Virus record (IMG/VR): IMGVR_UViG_3300038620_000091
Reading direction: 5' to 3' (one strand)
DNA: 64,000 bases
Source of the DNA: a virus
Part shown: positions 3,187-35,052 of the stretch, piece after piece
Position numbering within the stretch: the first letter of the stretch is position 1
Layout of the letters: every line of letters starts with the position of its first letter
Notes under the pieces: generated by a model
Seen by the model: only the letters and a program-made list of their open reading frames with translations
Database searches by the model: none
What the model was told of the DNA's origin: nothing
Made by a program: the position numbers and the translations under genes

Positions 3187-3215
3187 CTAACAAACTAACC
3201 TAAAATTGAAGTAAA

Positions 3216-3554
3216 ATGAAACTATCAAGGCGCAAACTTAAACGCATAATTCGTGAAGAAACTCAAAACGTTTTGCAAGAGGCTTCTTACAGCCAAAGAA
3301 GCCGTACTGTTCGCATCGGTCGTGAAGAGTACGTAGTGGGTATTCGAGTTGAAGACGACCGTGTTGCATTAATCGCAGAGCCAAATGATCCACAAGCTAC
3401 TATGAATCGACGTGGTGATGAGTTTGACTTTATGAACGCTGTGTCAAAAGAGCTTGGTATTGATATTTACCATTTTGACGATCCAAGCATTTCTGACAGG
3501 GCAATGGCATTTCGCGTTCCCCCACAAGAAATTCTTGACCTAATTGTTCGATAA
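3216..3554 (+). CDS. leader-bearing small protein
   Basis: MKLSRRKLKRIIREETQNVLQE leader. Confidence 0.75.
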   Translation: MKLSRRKLKRIIREETQNVLQEASYSQRSRTVRIGREEYVVGIRVEDDRVALIAEPNDPQATMNRRGDEFDFMNAVSKELGIDIYHFDDPSISDRAMAFRVPPQEILDLIVR

Positions 3555-5517: not shown

Positions 5518-5856
5518 ATGAGACTTTCAAGACGTAAATTACAACGAATAATTCGTGAAGAGATCCGAAAGACCTTAAATGAAAGGGTTATCCGGGAAAA
5601 GTACACAGTTGATGAGCTTGAACGAACCGTAAAAGACCAGTTTCCGATGGCCCGTGTCATTCGCACTCCAGACGGAGTACACAGAGGAATCCCATTCAGC
5701 GATTATGGTGGGGTTTTAGTTGATATGGGCGGTCGCCAAGAAATGTACTTTGTTCGTGTAGATGGAGAAGTTAAACGTTATAGCCCGGAATCTGGAAGTC
5801 TATTTATGGGCCGTTCTGAGGATGCTAAACTCTTGAAACAACTTTTTAACCTTTAA
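5518..5856 (+). CDS. leader-bearing small protein
   Basis: MRLSRRKLQRIIREEIRKTLNE leader. Confidence 0.75.
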   Translation: MRLSRRKLQRIIREEIRKTLNERVIREKYTVDELERTVKDQFPMARVIRTPDGVHRGIPFSDYGGVLVDMGGRQEMYFVRVDGEVKRYSPESGSLFMGRSEDAKLLKQLFNL

Positions 5857-5860
5857 CACT

Positions 5861-6268
5861 ATGAAATTATCAAGAAGAAAATTGCAAAGAATAATTCGTG
5901 AAGAGGTCCGAAAGACCTTAAACGAACGAGTTACCGAAGATGAACACGAGAGGTTTGTTCGTGGAATCGAAGAAGCGGTAAGCGACGTTCTTGGATTTTA
6001 CGATCTTCGAATGAACCCAAGAAGCGATAAAGGACCCGGTTCTCAAATCGAGTATCAAGACAGAGACGACACCAGAGGGTTCTTTGTTGACCTTGAAGAA
6101 ACCGGGCGTGGATATGAGATAACCGTCACCGGAAGAGGAAGGTCAATGGAAGAAGGAACCACGTTTCGCGTAAACAGCTTAGGTGACGAGTTTGTTACCG
6201 AGCTTGCTTACGTAATTGAAGAAGAGCCGCTTGAAGCAAGACCGGAACCGCGTTCATCTTTCCGGTAA
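5861..6268 (+). CDS. leader-bearing small protein
   Basis: MKLSRRKLQRIIREEVRKTLNE leader. Confidence 0.75.
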   Translation: MKLSRRKLQRIIREEVRKTLNERVTEDEHERFVRGIEEAVSDVLGFYDLRMNPRSDKGPGSQIEYQDRDDTRGFFVDLEETGRGYEITVTGRGRSMEEGTTFRVNSLGDEFVTELAYVIEEEPLEARPEPRSSFR

Positions 6269-6302
6269 CGACAAAGAATCAAAAATCAACCAGTAAAAAA
6301 TT

Positions 6303-6737
6303 ATGAGACTAAACAGAAGAAATCTTAGAAGACTTATCGAATCCGAAGTTGAAGAACAAGTTGGGGAAGAAGACGAAGAACACGAAGATGAAGAAAAGAC
6401 CGAGCGTGTTCGAGTTAAAAACAACGAGTCTGGAAACAGCTACAAGGTTCGACAGGACTTTGCGTTTTCAAATCCACAACGCTACTCTAGCATCCGAAAA
6501 ATGGTTCGAGAAGAGGTTCGTTCGATGATCGGAGAACAGTCCGGAGCCCAAGCTGCAGAAAAAACGATTGAAATCCGTTCGGATATGCAGCAAATGAACC
6601 GAAAGTTCCGAGACTTGATGCAGATGGTTAGAGACGTTGACCGTGATATGGTTGATTGGACAGAAGAAATTCATGAAGATTTCCGTGATCTAATGGATGA
6701 TCTTTACGACCTTGGAAACGAACTTTCTATGAAGTAG
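6303..6737 (+). CDS. protein with two leader-like motifs
   Basis: MRLNRRNLRRLIESEV at the N-terminus and SIRKMVREEVRSMIGE internally. Confidence 0.7.
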   Translation: MRLNRRNLRRLIESEVEEQVGEEDEEHEDEEKTERVRVKNNESGNSYKVRQDFAFSNPQRYSSIRKMVREEVRSMIGEQSGAQAAEKTIEIRSDMQQMNRKFRDLMQMVRDVDRDMVDWTEEIHEDFRDLMDDLYDLGNELSMK

Positions 6738-6806
6738 TTAAATTTAGAAGTAACACTTTTATAATTAGTTATCTAGTATAAATACACAAACACGAAATTT
6801 TGCCAA

Positions 6807-7247
6807 ATGCGACTTTCAAGGCGTAATTTAAGAAGAATTATCAAAGAAGAGACAAACAAGCTTCTTTCCGAGCAAACTCTTCCAAGAGACTTTACCGTTG
6901 ATATTCATCTTGGAAAGTACGGAAAAAGGTGTGCCGAGTATGTTATGGATGATCTTCAAGATAGGCTTCCGCGAAAGGCCGACATGTACGTTGATTACGG
7001 GCCGAAGCACCTTCGCGGGTCCGGTGGATTTGGATTTGTAGCCTACAGTAGAAGTGATCTTGAATATGAAGTTCAACTGACCGTGATGCTTGCCGCCAAA
7101 AACGAGAACATCATTCAAGTTAGAATACAAGGCCCGGATAGGGGAACAGAAAAAGAAGAGTGGACTTTTGGCATGAACGAAAATCCACAGGACCAGTTAG
7201 ATAATGCTGCTTCATATATTATTCGTATGCTTGGGTACCGCACATAA
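6807..7247 (+). CDS. leader-bearing small protein
   Basis: MRLSRRNLRRIIKEETNKLLSE leader; TATAAATA at 6777 upstream. Confidence 0.75.
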   Translation: MRLSRRNLRRIIKEETNKLLSEQTLPRDFTVDIHLGKYGKRCAEYVMDDLQDRLPRKADMYVDYGPKHLRGSGGFGFVAYSRSDLEYEVQLTVMLAAKNENIIQVRIQGPDRGTEKEEWTFGMNENPQDQLDNAASYIIRMLGYRT

Positions 7248-19492: not shown

Positions 19493-19693
19493 ATGAACGA
19501 AACGTTCAAAAAGTTTTTAGGTCAATTAGTAAACGAGTGGTCTTACAGATGTGACAAAGGGTATCCAGACCCCACAAATGAACAAGACCTTTCGGTGCTT
19601 GAATCTGTACTAGAAGACTTCGAAACGCCAAGAGAAGTGCGAGAAGAAGTTATTGAAACTGTTCGAGCGGAAGCGAAGAAAGATAACTCTTAA
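19493..19693 (+). CDS. conserved phage hypothetical protein
   Basis: EWSYR..KGYPD..N...L..L motif; TA-rich promoter-like site upstream. Confidence 0.65.
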   Translation: MNETFKKFLGQLVNEWSYRCDKGYPDPTNEQDLSVLESVLEDFETPREVREEVIETVRAEAKKDNS

Positions 19694-19749
19694 CAAATCG
19701 TTTACCTTAAATACATATAAAGTGAATACACCCCAAACCGAGAAGTCAG

Positions 19750-20169
19750 TTGCAAACTCAGTTGTTACTTACGTTTACAGACATTTCTTCTATTGATGAA
19801 ACGATAGAAGAAATCCAAGATCATTACGAGGTCGCCTTTGATAAGATTTTCATTTTGCAGGATGAAAACAACCCAAAGGACATATACTGCACATATAATA
19901 TAGATACAGAGGCAGATAATGACCGGATGCACAAAACGATCTCCGTTCACCGGAAAAAAGAAACGAACACGATTTATACGATCAATGCGCTAAACAGCCT
20001 CATTGTTCGTCTAAACGATGGTGAACTTGACAAAGAGTATTCGGTTCCTTGGGAAAACTATCAAAACTGCATCCTGCTTAACGTTGGCGGGGAGCTTCGA
20101 GAGGTTCCTACCAACCTTTTTGATATCGAGCACACGTCTGTAAAAGAAGACGGCCCATACGATTTTTAA
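19750..20169 (+). CDS. conserved phage hypothetical protein
   Basis: LLLTFT, CTYNI, HRKKETNTIYTINALN and WENYQN motifs; TTG start. Confidence 0.7.
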   Translation: MQTQLLLTFTDISSIDETIEEIQDHYEVAFDKIFILQDENNPKDIYCTYNIDTEADNDRMHKTISVHRKKETNTIYTINALNSLIVRLNDGELDKEYSVPWENYQNCILLNVGGELREVPTNLFDIEHTSVKEDGPYDF

Positions 20170-31568: not shown

Positions 31569-33737
31569 TTGTATCAAAATATCTACATAGAAGATAAGTG
31601 GTCTTCACATCCTACAGCGCACGTTTGGGACGATGAACACGGGTATTTTAAAGAGAAGTTCAACAATTACAAGTTTCTCTTAGACCCGAACGGGAAATAT
31701 ACGAGCATGTATGGGGACCCGGTTAAGAAGATGGACGACCTTTCGAAAAAGGATGTGGAAAGAGCAAAGAAGCGGTTTGGAACCGAGGAAGTCACGTTTG
31801 AAAGTGACATTCGCCCGGAGGTCCGCTATCTCACAGAGAGGTATTTAGACGAAGATGAACCAAGCGAGGGCCATACAATTTTGTATTTCGACATTGAGGT
31901 TTCAATGGAAGACGGGGTCCCGAACGTGAAGACCGCGCAAAATAAGATTACGTCCGTTGCATACTACGACGATTCCACCGAAAACAAGTGCGTTTTGATT
32001 TTAGATGAAAATGAAAACATTGGTTCAGACTTTAAGCTTAATGGAACAGAGGTCCGGTCTTTTGAAACAGAAGAGAAGCTTCTTGAAAGCTTTGTGTTTG
32101 CATGGAAGAGCATCGATCCCACCATTGTTGTTGGGTATAACTCCGATAAGTTTGACATACCGTACACATATCGCCGCTTGAAGCGGATTTTTGGAGAGAA
32201 GTTTGCAAAGTCCTTGTCCCCGATTGGAAAGGTAGACCACAACGAGCGCAAAGACAGGTTCTATATAGCAGGGGTTTCAAGTCTTGACTACTATTCTCTT
32301 TACAGAAACTTCACGTTCACGCAACTTGATAGTTACAGCTTAGATAACGTTTCAAACAAAGAGCTTGACGAAGGAAAAATTACATACAAAGGCAGGACAT
32401 ACATAGAGCAAGAAGACGGGTCTTACACGCATAAAGAAGATGCTGACCCGTCTAAAGAAAACGTCCGGGAAGTAAATGACCTTGACGACCTTTTTGAATG
32501 TGATATAGAGAGGTTTGTCGAGTATAACTTAGAAGACGTTATGCTTCTTGTGAAAATGGAAGAAAAAAATGATTACATCGAGCTTGCCCGGAAGCTTTGT
32601 CACTTAGGCCACGTGCCGTATGAAGACGTTTATATGTCTTCAAGATATATTGATGGAGCAATTTTAACTTATCTTCACCGGAAAGGAAAAATTGCCCCGG
32701 ATAAGAAAGATTTCAATCTTGATTTGAAAAAAGATCATTCGAAGGGATCGAAAGTTCTTGAATTTCAAGATAAAATCCCTAAACATATTCCAGAACGCGG
32801 AACTCTTGGCATTCAAAAAACGACCGCGACGAAAAAAACGTTTGATTACAAAGACAAGCGAGAAAACAAGATATTTCTTGAAGACCGTGTAGACTTTAAG
32901 GTTTTTGAAAACATGAACGTAAATCTAGAGTTTCCGGGTGCTTATGTAAAGTCCCCGGAGCCGGGAAGATACGAATGGGTATATGACCTTGACCTGACTT
33001 CGATGTACCCGTCAATTATTATGACAATAAACATCTCGCCGGAAACGAAAGTTGGGACTGTTTACGACTGGAACATCGAAGACGCAATTCGAGAGGATAA
33101 TCCCGATAAAATTTACGAGGTTCACCTGTTTTCCCGTTCGAAGACGGTGAAGATGAAAAAGAAAAATTTACTAGACAAGCTTCAAAGCAATAGTCTTGCC
33201 ATAGCGAGCAACGGGACGTTTTACCGGACAGATAAAACCGGGGTAATTCCCGATATACTAGAAAAGTGGTTTACGCTTCGTCAAGATTATAAATCCACAA
33301 GAAACAAGTGGAGAGAAAAAGCAACCGCATTGACAGACGAAGAAGACAATCTAAAAGACGAGTCAAAAAGAGAAGAATATGAAGAATACGAGTATAATGC
33401 CGAATATTACGACAAGCTTCAACATGCCCACAAGATTTTGATTAACTCTGTATACGGTGTTCTTGGGCTTTCAACGTTTCGCTACTACGACGTAGACAAC
33501 GCCCAAGCGGTGACAGACACCGGACGTACACTTATTAAGTTCACGTCTGAAATGGGCAACAAGTATTACAACAGGCTCTTAGGCACCGGAGACGCCGAAG
33601 GCTACCGGGTTTCTCTTGACAACGGAGAAACGGTGACAATACATCCAAGAGAAACCGTTAGGGTAAAAAGAGAAGGCGTCAAAACGAAAGTCTACGGATG
33701 CAACATTAAAGAAGGAGATGAAATTATCGAGGCGTAG
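31569..33737 (+). CDS. family B DNA polymerase, N-terminal part (exonuclease, motifs A and B)
   Basis: FDIE, GYNSDKFD, YNLED, DLDLTSMYPS, KILINSVYG; lacks YxDTDS; ends in an intein-like tail. Confidence 0.93.
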   Translation: MYQNIYIEDKWSSHPTAHVWDDEHGYFKEKFNNYKFLLDPNGKYTSMYGDPVKKMDDLSKKDVERAKKRFGTEEVTFESDIRPEVRYLTERYLDEDEPSEGHTILYFDIEVSMEDGVPNVKTAQNKITSVAYYDDSTENKCVLILDENENIGSDFKLNGTEVRSFETEEKLLESFVFAWKSIDPTIVVGYNSDKFDIPYTYRRLKRIFGEKFAKSLSPIGKVDHNERKDRFYIAGVSSLDYYSLYRNFTFTQLDSYSLDNVSNKELDEGKITYKGRTYIEQEDGSYTHKEDADPSKENVREVNDLDDLFECDIERFVEYNLEDVMLLVKMEEKNDYIELARKLCHLGHVPYEDVYMSSRYIDGAILTYLHRKGKIAPDKKDFNLDLKKDHSKGSKVLEFQDKIPKHIPERGTLGIQKTTATKKTFDYKDKRENKIFLEDRVDFKVFENMNVNLEFPGAYVKSPEPGRYEWVYDLDLTSMYPSIIMTINISPETKVGTVYDWNIEDAIREDNPDKIYEVHLFSRSKTVKMKKKNLLDKLQSNSLAIASNGTFYRTDKTGVIPDILEKWFTLRQDYKSTRNKWREKATALTDEEDNLKDESKREEYEEYEYNAEYYDKLQHAHKILINSVYGVLGLSTFRYYDVDNAQAVTDTGRTLIKFTSEMGNKYYNRLLGTGDAEGYRVSLDNGETVTIHPRETVRVKREGVKTKVYGCNIKEGDEIIEA

Positions 33738-33760
33738 CAAACTTGATGCCAAAAAACCCT

Positions 33761-33805
33761 CTTCAAAAAAGCTTCACGGAACGAATCTTGCTTAAGGTTA
33801 TTTAT
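33761..33805 (+). promoter_or_regulatory. repeat plus GGAAC-N16-TATTTAT promoter
   Basis: CTTCAA 33761 and CTTCAC 33772 (11 bp apart); GGAAC 33778; TATTTAT 33799. Confidence 0.55.
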
Positions 33806-33865
33806 ATAAGCGAGTTGACAAAGAAACAGATCATTACTTTTTAACTAAACTAACACATAACAGTT

Positions 33866-34060
33866 ATGGGTACGACACGAAGAAAGCGAATCAAAATCAT
33901 CGAAGGTCCACATTCTGGAAAGACGATGAAGGCAGACCGGGAAATCAATTTTCATTGGAAGGAATCAGAACTTCCACGGGGACAAAAAAGGCGATATGTT
34001 TATGTTGTAGAAGACCCCGATATTCAATTTATTTCCGGCTCGAAGGTTGAAGAGATTTAA
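33866..34060 (+). CDS. small KOW/SH3-like protein between the polymerase halves
   Basis: RIKIIEGPHSGKT resembles a KOW motif; has its own promoter-like site and terminator. Confidence 0.55.
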   Translation: MGTTRRKRIKIIEGPHSGKTMKADREINFHWKESELPRGQKRRYVYVVEDPDIQFISGSKVEEI

Positions 34061-34084
34061 CGAATAGCGTATTGTTTTTATGTG

Positions 34085-34114
34085 GAGGCCGGGGGAAACC
34101 CCGGCCTCTTTATT
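34085..34114 (+). terminator. intrinsic terminator
   Basis: gaggccgggg-gaaa-ccccggcctc followed by tttatt. Confidence 0.8.
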
Positions 34115-34137
34115 GACATTTCAAAAAAGCAAATAAT

Positions 34138-35052
34138 ATGCCAAAAGTTGAAAACGTCGAAAAGATAAGCTCTGGTGGAGAAAATGACACCGACTGGTGT
34201 ACCTATACAGACACAGATAGTGTGTTTTACCCGGCTGCACCCGTGGTTCAAAGGAGAACTCCAACAGCCGATCTTGACGACGAAGACTTCATGACCGAAA
34301 AAATTCTTGAAGTGGCTGAAGAAATGGAGGACTACATCAACGCAAGTTACGACCTTTTTTCAAAACACTTTTTAAACGCCGGAACCGAAGACCACTGGCT
34401 TGAAATCAAGCAGGAGCTTATTGCAAGACGTGGGTTTTGGATTCGAAAGAAACGGTACGCCCAATGGATTATATACGACGAGGGCGACCCGGTTCAAGAG
34501 CCGGATTGGAAGGGGCTTGATGTTGTTCGGTCTGACTTTCCGACCGCATTTAGCGACCACATGGAAGAGGTTTTAATTGACCTTCTTCACGACGAATCGA
34601 AAGAAGACATTGACCAAAAAATTCTTGACTTCAAAGACGAGATTCGGGAGTTGGACCTTTCGGAAATTTCAAATCCAACCGGAGTTTCAAAGATGGACAA
34701 GTATTCGACCGGAGAGTTTGGAGTGCGAAAGAAAGGCACGCCTATTCACGTGAAGGCTTCTTTAGCCTATAACGACTTAATTGACCATTTGGACATTGTT
34801 TCAGAGAAAATTAAGAGCGGCACAAAGATCCGTTGGGTTTACCTTTTGGACAACCCTTACGGGTTTACAGAAATCGCTTACAAGGGCAGCGACGACCCTC
34901 AAGAGATCATCGAGTACATCCACGACTACGTAGATTACGATAAGATGTACGAAAAGTCTTTGAAGTCTAAGCTTGAGGGAATTTACGACGCTATGGGGTG
35001 GGAGTTTCCGAAAAAGAAAAGCGAAGCGATGAACTCTTTTTTTGATCTTTAA
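34138..35052 (+). CDS. family B DNA polymerase, C-terminal part (motif C, thumb)
   Basis: YTDTDSVF, KKRYA, KGLDVVRSD, GTPIHVK. Confidence 0.93.
   Translation: MPKVENVEKISSGGENDTDWCTYTDTDSVFYPAAPVVQRRTPTADLDDEDFMTEKILEVAEEMEDYINASYDLFSKHFLNAGTEDHWLEIKQELIARRGFWIRKKRYAQWIIYDEGDPVQEPDWKGLDVVRSDFPTAFSDHMEEVLIDLLHDESKEDIDQKILDFKDEIRELDLSEISNPTGVSKMDKYSTGEFGVRKKGTPIHVKASLAYNDLIDHLDIVSEKIKSGTKIRWVYLLDNPYGFTEIAYKGSDDPQEIIEYIHDYVDYDKMYEKSLKSKLEGIYDAMGWEFPKKKSEAMNSFFDL

Follow-up and report, generated by a model that had tools for sequence, protein, structure and literature searches.

A split phage DNA polymerase whose ends appear to derive from a non-splicing split intein, possibly kept as a docking module

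The window analyzed here is a stretch of 64,000 nucleotides from a virus (IMG/VR record IMGVR_UViG_3300038620_000091) in which a family B DNA polymerase (PolB) is encoded by two open reading frames (ORFs) that are separated by a spacer of 400 nucleotides. According to Pfam matches and translations, the exonuclease domain, motifs A, B, and C, and the KKRY region are spread over both ORFs. The product of the first ORF, the N-half, matches DNA_pol_B_exo1 (1e-23) and DNA_pol_B (3.5e-20), is identical in sequence to a recorded protein (P0001), and carries motif B in the form KILINSVYG. The product of the second, the C-half, matches DNA_pol_B (3.1e-6) and begins with MPKVENVEKISS; a short linker leads from there to motif C (YTDTDS). 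The polymerase is broken between motifs B and C, where a reading of the sequence without database searches (the original prediction) had placed the break. Compared with unsplit relatives, the polymerase part of the N-half halts about 10 residues short of the motif C strand and gives way to a tail that has no counterpart in unsplit PolB; the original prediction had put this foreign end at about 48 residues, and comparison with unsplit enzymes gives a slightly shorter count. The features of the locus are collected in Table 1.

Table 1. Coordinates of the split polymerase locus and of related features. Positions refer to the window unless a contig is named.
Feature	Coordinates	Strand	Description	Evidence
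PolB N-half gene	31569..33737	+	722 residues: exonuclease domain, motifs A and B, then intein-derived tail	ORF list, Pfam
45-residue tail	33600..33734	+	Homology to the distal segment ("N2", after block B) of a split N-intein	Hidden Markov model, hhalign, AlphaFold2, structure match, substitution rates
Conserved 64-residue ORF	33866..34060	+	Predicted all-beta small barrel	Homologues, substitution counts, AlphaFold2
Hairpin	34084..34114	+	11-bp GC-rich stem and T-rich run, terminator-like, between the 64-residue ORF and the C-half	Folding energy
PolB C-half gene	34138..35052	+	304 residues: head, linker, motif C, KKRY region, thumb	ORF list, Pfam
12-residue head	34138..34173	+	Putative remnant of the first C-intein strand	C-intein hidden Markov model, likeness to L002 and L009
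Linker and motif C strand (ending DTD)	34174..34218	+	Part of the N-half in intact-intein relatives	Comparison with P0005, P0007, P0177, and unsplit PolBs
Homologues of the 64-residue ORF	L002:9600-9779; L004:4998-5192; L005:2965-3159; L009:2899-3090; L011:472-666
Contiguous YTD^TDS intein	L005:3249-5159 (P0013); L007:3123-4988 (LR756508); L011:735-1721

With the final 163 residues of the N-half as query, together with contig look-ups, relatives of the locus were found that fall into three kinds. In the first, represented by L002 (P0005, P0010), L009 (P0177, P0178), and L003 (P0007, P0011), an intact split intein occupies the same locus with the same gene order. The N-half of these polymerases runs through motif C to D-T-D and continues into an N-intein of 120 to 126 residues that starts with Ser and contains a T-E-D-H block B, and the C-half opens with a C-intein of 43 to 49 residues that ends in (H/S)-N and is followed by Ser. 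Pfam calls Intein_splicing on these inteins, and their family matches the split intein of Aes123 PolB1 (PDB 9hth) with an E-value of 1.2e-14. Loci of the second kind (P0002, P0003 in L005, P0004 in L004, P0006, L011, and the 484-kb phage LR756508) resemble the window: the tail is short, and those with a known C-half combine a short head with motif C in that half. The third kind comprises unsplit, intein-free genes (P0008, P0009, and further fragments). Both comparisons named as informative in the original prediction, relatives with an intact split intein and relatives with an unsplit gene, are thus available.

The C-half of the window shares 60%, 68%, and 49.5% of its residues with the C-exteins of L002, L004, and LR756508, respectively. 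The two halves lie about 4 kb apart in LR756508 and about 2.6 kb apart in L004, with unrelated genes between them, and must therefore act as separate products in these phages. An exhaustive profile search detected the N-intein in 1040 proteins (E-values up to 0.001). Among the 150 best there were 127 full-length N-intein domains, 82 of which end at the protein C-terminus, and most of the proteins with a C-terminal N-intein that were examined are PolB N-halves ending in D-T-D. Scans of IMG/VR returned no further locus of the tail type.

The 127 genuine N-inteins, with the tails excluded, were used for a profile hidden Markov model (HMM) of 121 positions. The window tail matches this profile with 11.8 bits at positions 72 to 115, which lie between block B and the natural split point; shuffles matched in composition reached 8.4 bits at most (n = 5004). 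Five of the six tails score 11.8 (the window), 12.5, 9.6, 20.8, and 11.2 bits; that of P0004 scores 1.8 bits, which is at the level of the shuffles. In a profile-profile comparison with hhalign, the six tails align with the 127 N-inteins at 94.2% probability and an E-value of 1.1e-7 over 46 columns, and alignment to the single N-intein of L002 gives an E-value of 4e-4. The Intein_splicing match in P0005 and P0007 coincides exactly with the part to which the tail aligns; Pfam searched with the tail alone gave no Hint family and noise matches only. An alignment suggested by MAFFT would make the first tail strand a degenerate form of the motif C strand, with block A coming after it; it was rejected because the HMM, hhalign, and the structure agree on an uninterrupted alignment of the tail to the distal N-intein. 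A further match of the N-intein HMM at 19614-19796 is spurious, being an out-of-frame, Lys-rich translation that overlaps real ORFs.

Structure prediction leads to the same part of the intein. Modelled alone by AlphaFold2, the tail (49 residues) forms five strands with a mean predicted local distance difference test (pLDDT) score of 84.2. The first six PDB matches to this model in Foldseek are inteins, with E-values above 0.3 that are weak because the query is short, and inteins or hedgehog Hint domains make up 18 of the 22 entries listed by VIA-align. Nearly all of these Hint matches place the whole tail model on a contiguous stretch within residues ~70-126. The best of them is 5bkh (Z 5.2, root mean square deviation 2.4 Å, 48 residues), and the model also matches PI-PfuI (Z 5.0) and Aes123 PolB1 (Z 2.9, residues 70-116). 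Over intein residues ~72-119 the Z values range from 5.2 to 2.2, the best matches lying between 5.2 and 4.3, and concern a sub-part of the Hint fold only; being modest, they agree with the sequence result without amounting to independent proof of it. The resemblance on which the original prediction was built, between the tail and the distal N-intein, is borne out by the profiles, and the fold match agrees with them.

What is missing from the window is the chemistry. Block A and its nucleophile Ser1 are absent: the tail aligns only to N-intein positions ~74-120, and the first ~75-80 residues are gone. Block B, the TxxH motif, is lost as well. In the hhalign alignment, the T-E-D-H of the intact relatives stands opposite H-P-R-E, and each of the six tails has Glu or Asp in place of the His. 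The C-half lacks blocks F and G, with the terminal Asn and the Ser, Thr, or Cys that follows it, and has no counterpart of the corresponding segment of P0010, P0011, and P0178. The absence of blocks A, B, F, and G excludes splicing, and alignment with the intact relatives in this respect upholds the original prediction, which had listed the block A nucleophile, TxxH, block F, and the terminal HN-C/S/T as lacking.

The remnant is nevertheless not drifting freely. Between the window and L005, whose proteins are about 92% identical, synonymous sites are saturated (proportion of synonymous differences, pS, ~0.7). The 45 codons of the tail differ by 13 nonsynonymous and 22 synonymous changes, corresponding to a nonsynonymous divergence (dN) of 0.137 and a ratio of nonsynonymous to synonymous divergence (omega) of ~0.07; dN is 0.085 and 0.059 for the two exteins. 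Frame and length of the tail are kept, together with 78-79% of its residues, which a neutrally drifting remnant would not hold at such a distance, indicating that the tail is maintained by selection. In every lineage, the tail carries the same derived residues, which have no counterpart in true N-inteins, namely a V-x-R in mid-tail, a D-E near the end, and the Glu or Asp that replaces the block B His. The same architecture recurs in P0002, P0003, P0004, P0006, L011, and LR756508, at polymerase identities down to 47-48%. For the 12 codons of the head, the comparison with L005 yields an omega of ~0.15. Substitution patterns of this kind indicate that tail and head are under purifying selection, and the pair appears to have been retained in at least six diverged lineages.

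The head is the less certain of the two ends. It aligns to positions 9-17 of a C-intein HMM (46 sequences), with shuffles doing as well in 5 of 2000 cases for the window and in 3 of 2000 for L005, and it resembles the first C-intein strand in L002 and L009. Its position and this likeness are the main grounds on which homology to a C-intein is suggested. The claim that both ends are catalytically stripped remnants of a split intein consequently fares differently at its two ends: intact relatives, profiles, and fold sustain it strongly for the tail, and the identification of the head as the first C-intein strand is sustained weakly, by position and shuffles.

Contact between the two ends was addressed by complex prediction, an approach that the original prediction had put forward. 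Three runs with the tail (53 residues) and the first 30 residues of the C-half, based on alignments of 5 and 4 rows, respectively, gave an interaction prediction score from aligned errors (ipSAE) of 0.37, 0.38, and 0.37, compared to 0.01 for the best control. The runs share at least 85% of their contacts, and the pLDDT of the partner is 55-57. For calibration, of 80 solved complexes and 110 mismatched pairs, 58 and 2, respectively, attained the same mark of weak support; those passing with scores of at most 0.60 include only 7 of the 80 solved complexes and both of the mismatched pairs. The outcome lends weak support to binding of the head by the tail in these models.

Based on these data, a rather probable model is that of a non-splicing, two-subunit polymerase whose ends derive from a split intein of the Aes123 PolB1 family and act as a docking module. 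An ancestral serine-type split intein of this family would have resided at the DTD^S site of motif C and would have lost its first ~75-80 residues including block A, the Thr and His of block B, and blocks F and G. Left over would be the distal "N2" segment on the N-half and, probably, the first C-intein strand on the C-half. Relocation of the motif C strand to the C-half would make the active site composite, with motif A provided by one chain and motif C by the other. The polymerase would be made as two polypeptides that are never joined. Instead, the tail would keep its Hint-subdomain fold and pair with the head as an added strand, which would help the halves find and hold each other without splicing. 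For Npu DnaE, it is established that a split intein assembles by capture and collapse, in which the N2 segment and the start of the C-intein touch first (cited in PMC11923092). From this analogy and the predicted complex, we infer a physical contact between tail and head that matters for activity, and thus a non-covalent clasp. A more demanding version, in which a dead split intein has been domesticated such that only its capture elements survive, as a heterodimerization module required for the composite active site of the phage replicase, is held more tentatively; it may well be correct but falls short of being probable.

Several observations weigh against a docking function. Compared to the C-intein profile with hhalign, the head gives an E-value of 0.078 over 6 columns, which is not significant on its own because the stretch is too short. 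The score of the tail-head pair falls in a range in which passes are more often wrong than right, and the 30-residue chain used for the head included the motif C hairpin, a possible partner of the tail in the model. A C-intein remainder of ~12 residues is far below the partner surface of a real split intein. As modelled, the tail folds confidently by itself and may be an autonomous small domain, selected for a role other than binding the head. Finally, the tails of fragmented Aeh1 NrdA, a comparable case considered below, are dispensable for heterodimer formation and are needed at a later assembly step (PMC3045599).

These observations bear on an alternative in which the tail is derived from an intein but selected for another job, be it stabilization of the truncated palm of the N-half or binding of the 64-residue protein encoded in the spacer, of another part of the C-half, of DNA, or of the clamp. 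Such a role is unlikely, yet it has to be taken seriously. It fits a tail that is predicted to be a compact five-stranded unit in isolation, the weak homology of the head, and the precedent of NrdA tails that act at a step other than heterodimerization. It also fits the 64-residue ORF, which always accompanies the split and is more constrained than the polymerase. On the other hand, the head, too, is conserved in pattern and under purifying selection, and the tail scores far above the controls when paired with it. As for the spacer-encoded protein as a ligand, its ORF is not specific to the degenerate state because it is present with intact inteins in L002 and L009.

It is important to note how closely this ORF follows the split. 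Homologues lie between the halves in L002, L004, L005, L009, L010, and L011, at loci with intact and degenerate inteins alike, and in L012 one is found with the N-side gene only. Between the window and L005 it shows 2 nonsynonymous and 27 synonymous differences (omega ~0.009, below that of the polymerase). AlphaFold2 predicts an all-beta fold of the small-barrel type (pLDDT 74.7), whose structural matches are weak and KOW/SH3-like, and an Atlas search and Foldseek likewise gave weak KOW/SH3-like or unnamed matches only. There was no Pfam match and no match to a nuclease-like fold, a PHROG match was marginal (E 0.047, function not assigned), and a scan of IMG/VR returned only the L002 contig. 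The possibility that the ORF is a displaced piece of the C-intein, suggested by a Y-V-Y likeness, was rejected since its scores with the C- and N-intein HMMs are at shuffle level. As this is the sole ORF of the spacer, the window has no free-standing homing endonuclease gene between the halves.

That tail and head are functionless, harmless debris of a decayed intein is improbable. All catalytic residues are gone and the tail evolves faster than the polymerase core, as debris would, but saturation of synonymous sites has left its frame, length, and most of its residues intact, the architecture persists in lineages that share less than half of their polymerase residues, and the tail model is confidently folded.

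Still less credible is convergence, with the tail being a small beta domain of another family (Tudor, SH3, or KOW-like) that was acquired independently and has come to resemble an intein. A sequence search of the PDB with the tail profile recovered only Tudor domains of JMJD2 demethylases, via a Y-x-V-x-F-D-D-G hairpin motif (E ~2e-3), and Pfam is silent on a Hint family in the tail. The Tudor identity was judged to reflect a generic motif, because profile-profile and fold comparisons favor Hint: the hhalign match to the N-intein family covers the whole tail, and inteins head the list of structural matches, aligned over one continuous stretch. In addition, the tail is placed like the intact N-intein of the sister lineages and is followed by the same small ORF.

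It is extremely improbable that the two halves become rejoined, whether at the RNA level by splicing, by translational bypass of the spacer, or by non-canonical protein splicing. T4-like phages are known to contain group I introns and to use bypassing, and L004 has a possible take-off and landing codon pair around a 5-nucleotide insertion in motif C. However, no intron family matches positions 33000-35000 even at an E-value of 10, the spacer codes for a protein under strong conservation and also includes the terminator-like hairpin, conservation of the tail is at the protein level, kilobases separate the halves in LR756508 and L004, and intein blocks A, F, and G are absent. The Rfam search of this interval, which covered ribozymes as well as introns, gave only two small RNA or snoRNA matches at chance level. 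The 83-nucleotide stretch that contains the hairpin (34058-34140) has a folding energy of -30.6 kcal/mol (z -5.0), and none of 200 shuffles was as stable; a scan for sigma-70 and simple terminator patterns was uninformative and did not list the hairpin itself. In L005 (~3188-3218), an analogous hairpin and T-run of different sequence occupies the equivalent place. The hairpin and T-run suggest that transcription or mRNA processing separates the C-half.

The history of the locus was examined with a tree of N-exteins (48 rows, quick IQ-TREE), which contains a clade of six members with 100% support: P0006 and LR756508 group with P0004, P0005, and the pair formed by the window and P0003. Identities of the C-exteins and of the small ORFs agree with this tree. 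The intact-intein lineage P0005/L002 is nested inside the degenerate group, and the degenerate label consequently requires two changes on the tree. A single origin is favored because the rearrangement is complex and the derived residues are shared; the L002/L009 lineage would later have had its cassette replaced through gap repair from an intact donor. A close donor of the L002 intein was sought, and the best match was only 39-44% identical. Alternatively, there may have been two independent losses, or the degenerate state may have spread by recombination. The original prediction had described an intermediate or domesticated state. The remnant indeed appears to be selected rather than decaying, but the window is not a simple intermediate, given that the motif C strand, which belongs to the N-half in the intact relatives, has changed sides and that P0005/L002 lies within the degenerate clade.

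The naturally split, cysteine-less intein of Aes123 PolB1 from T4-like Aeromonas phages (PDB 9hth; PMC11923092) is one of the nearest known systems. It interrupts the same host gene, a phage PolB, and belongs to the same family as the intact split inteins of the window's relatives. However, it comprises a full 120 + 39 residues with Ser1 and blocks B, F, and G, and it splices in trans, whereas ~45 + 12 residues without catalytic residues are left in the window. In fractured genes (Dassa et al. 2009, PMC2677866), a split intein is found together with a free-standing homing endonuclease between the halves, and a conserved hairpin was reported at these loci. Like them, the window encodes one enzyme in adjacent genes that carry intein pieces where they are broken, with an ORF inserted between the genes and a hairpin ahead of the C-part, and L003 fits the pattern, with a 411-residue ORF between its halves in which a Vsr-like motif can be seen by eye. 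The window departs from it in that there is no splicing, the 64-residue ORF lacks a nuclease signature, and the catalytic extein strand with motif C is on the other side.

A further parallel is offered by NrdA-a and NrdA-b of Aeh1 (Crona et al. 2011, PMC3045599), an essential enzyme that, like the window's polymerase, was fragmented by a mobile element. Its short foreign C- and N-terminal tails are needed for activity without splicing, and the authors speculated that they might be degenerate remnants of a split intein. There, the intein origin is speculative and without homology, whereas the window ends lead to a specific split-intein family and their function is the conjectural part. Intein-free two-subunit family B polymerases, gp43A/gp43B of 44RR and PolB1/PolB2 of Methanobacteriales, work without covalent joining, as is proposed here. 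For the latter, an origin by erratic intein excision has been proposed (PMC4104785, which cites Kelman 1999). The gp43A/B parallel drawn in the original prediction does not extend to the site of the split, because genes 43 and 43B of Aeromonas phage 44RR2.8t (L015:497-3218) are broken in the fingers, upstream of motif B, and the window gene between motifs B and C; by eye, the ends of 44RR gp43 bear no likeness to the window tail or head.

Three kinds of system are already known, namely split inteins, fractured genes, and split polymerases free of inteins, and the state that would link them, chemistry-free intein fragments kept by selection at both subunit ends, has only been speculated upon (PMC3045599, PMC4104785). 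Open-access literature searched for degenerate, inactive, and domesticated inteins yielded no report of a natural split-intein remnant that had been retained as an interaction module. Support for the link now comes from homology to an intein family that could be identified, from sister loci with intact inteins, and from the fold match. If the ends do form a clasp, the locus would illustrate how an essential gene escapes dependence on splicing after it has been broken by a mobile element, would account for a class of puzzling "tails" on fragmented phage genes, and would provide a compact, cysteine-free, non-reactive interaction pair from the family of the engineered Aes123 intein. Domestication, if correct, would constitute a natural route from a selfish protein-splicing element to a structural adaptor and would directly support the idea put forward for the Aeh1 NrdA tails. 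The sister loci form a comparative set of intact (L002, L009, L003), degenerate (the window, L004, L005, L011, LR756508), and re-invaded (L005, L011, LR756508) members, drawn from a small number of independent lineages.

The re-invaded loci carry a second, contiguous intein in their C-halves at YTD^TDS, two residues upstream of DTD^S, and the L005 copy contains Pfam matches to LAGLIDADG. Judging from these insertions, the split site is still a target for mobile elements. In several metagenomic PolBs (e.g., P0025 and P0032), both inteins occur in tandem with only Thr-Asp between them.

In L004, three extra genes lie between the halves, one of them for an Eco57I-like methyltransferase. Its motif C is interrupted by a 5-nucleotide insertion (TAACT; L004:7484-7498) between the Thr and Asp codons, which leads to a stop and a frameshift. 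The codon that precedes the insertion (ACT) recurs 5 nucleotides later, just ahead of the in-frame continuation. The insertion may mark a pseudogene, stem from faulty assembly, or be crossed by a short translational hop.

Throughout the window, every gene is on the plus strand, in a phage-like arrangement; the polymerase is neighbored by an RFC-like clamp loader and a clamp-like protein, and a DNA methyltransferase is encoded as well. The ORF between the halves of the intact, fractured polB of L003 (L003:2490-3725; P0012) has no Pfam match but matches phrog_22677 (1.8e-51; function not assigned), and its E-F-N-G-D-Y-W-H motif recalls Vsr-like homing endonucleases. Another large intein is located inside motif B (KILIN^C...) in LR756508 (L001:~5830-6940) and in L002 (P0005, residues 611-980). 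It has Gly-Gln before Ser in place of the usual His-Asn and is a Gln-terminated intein at the pol-b site.

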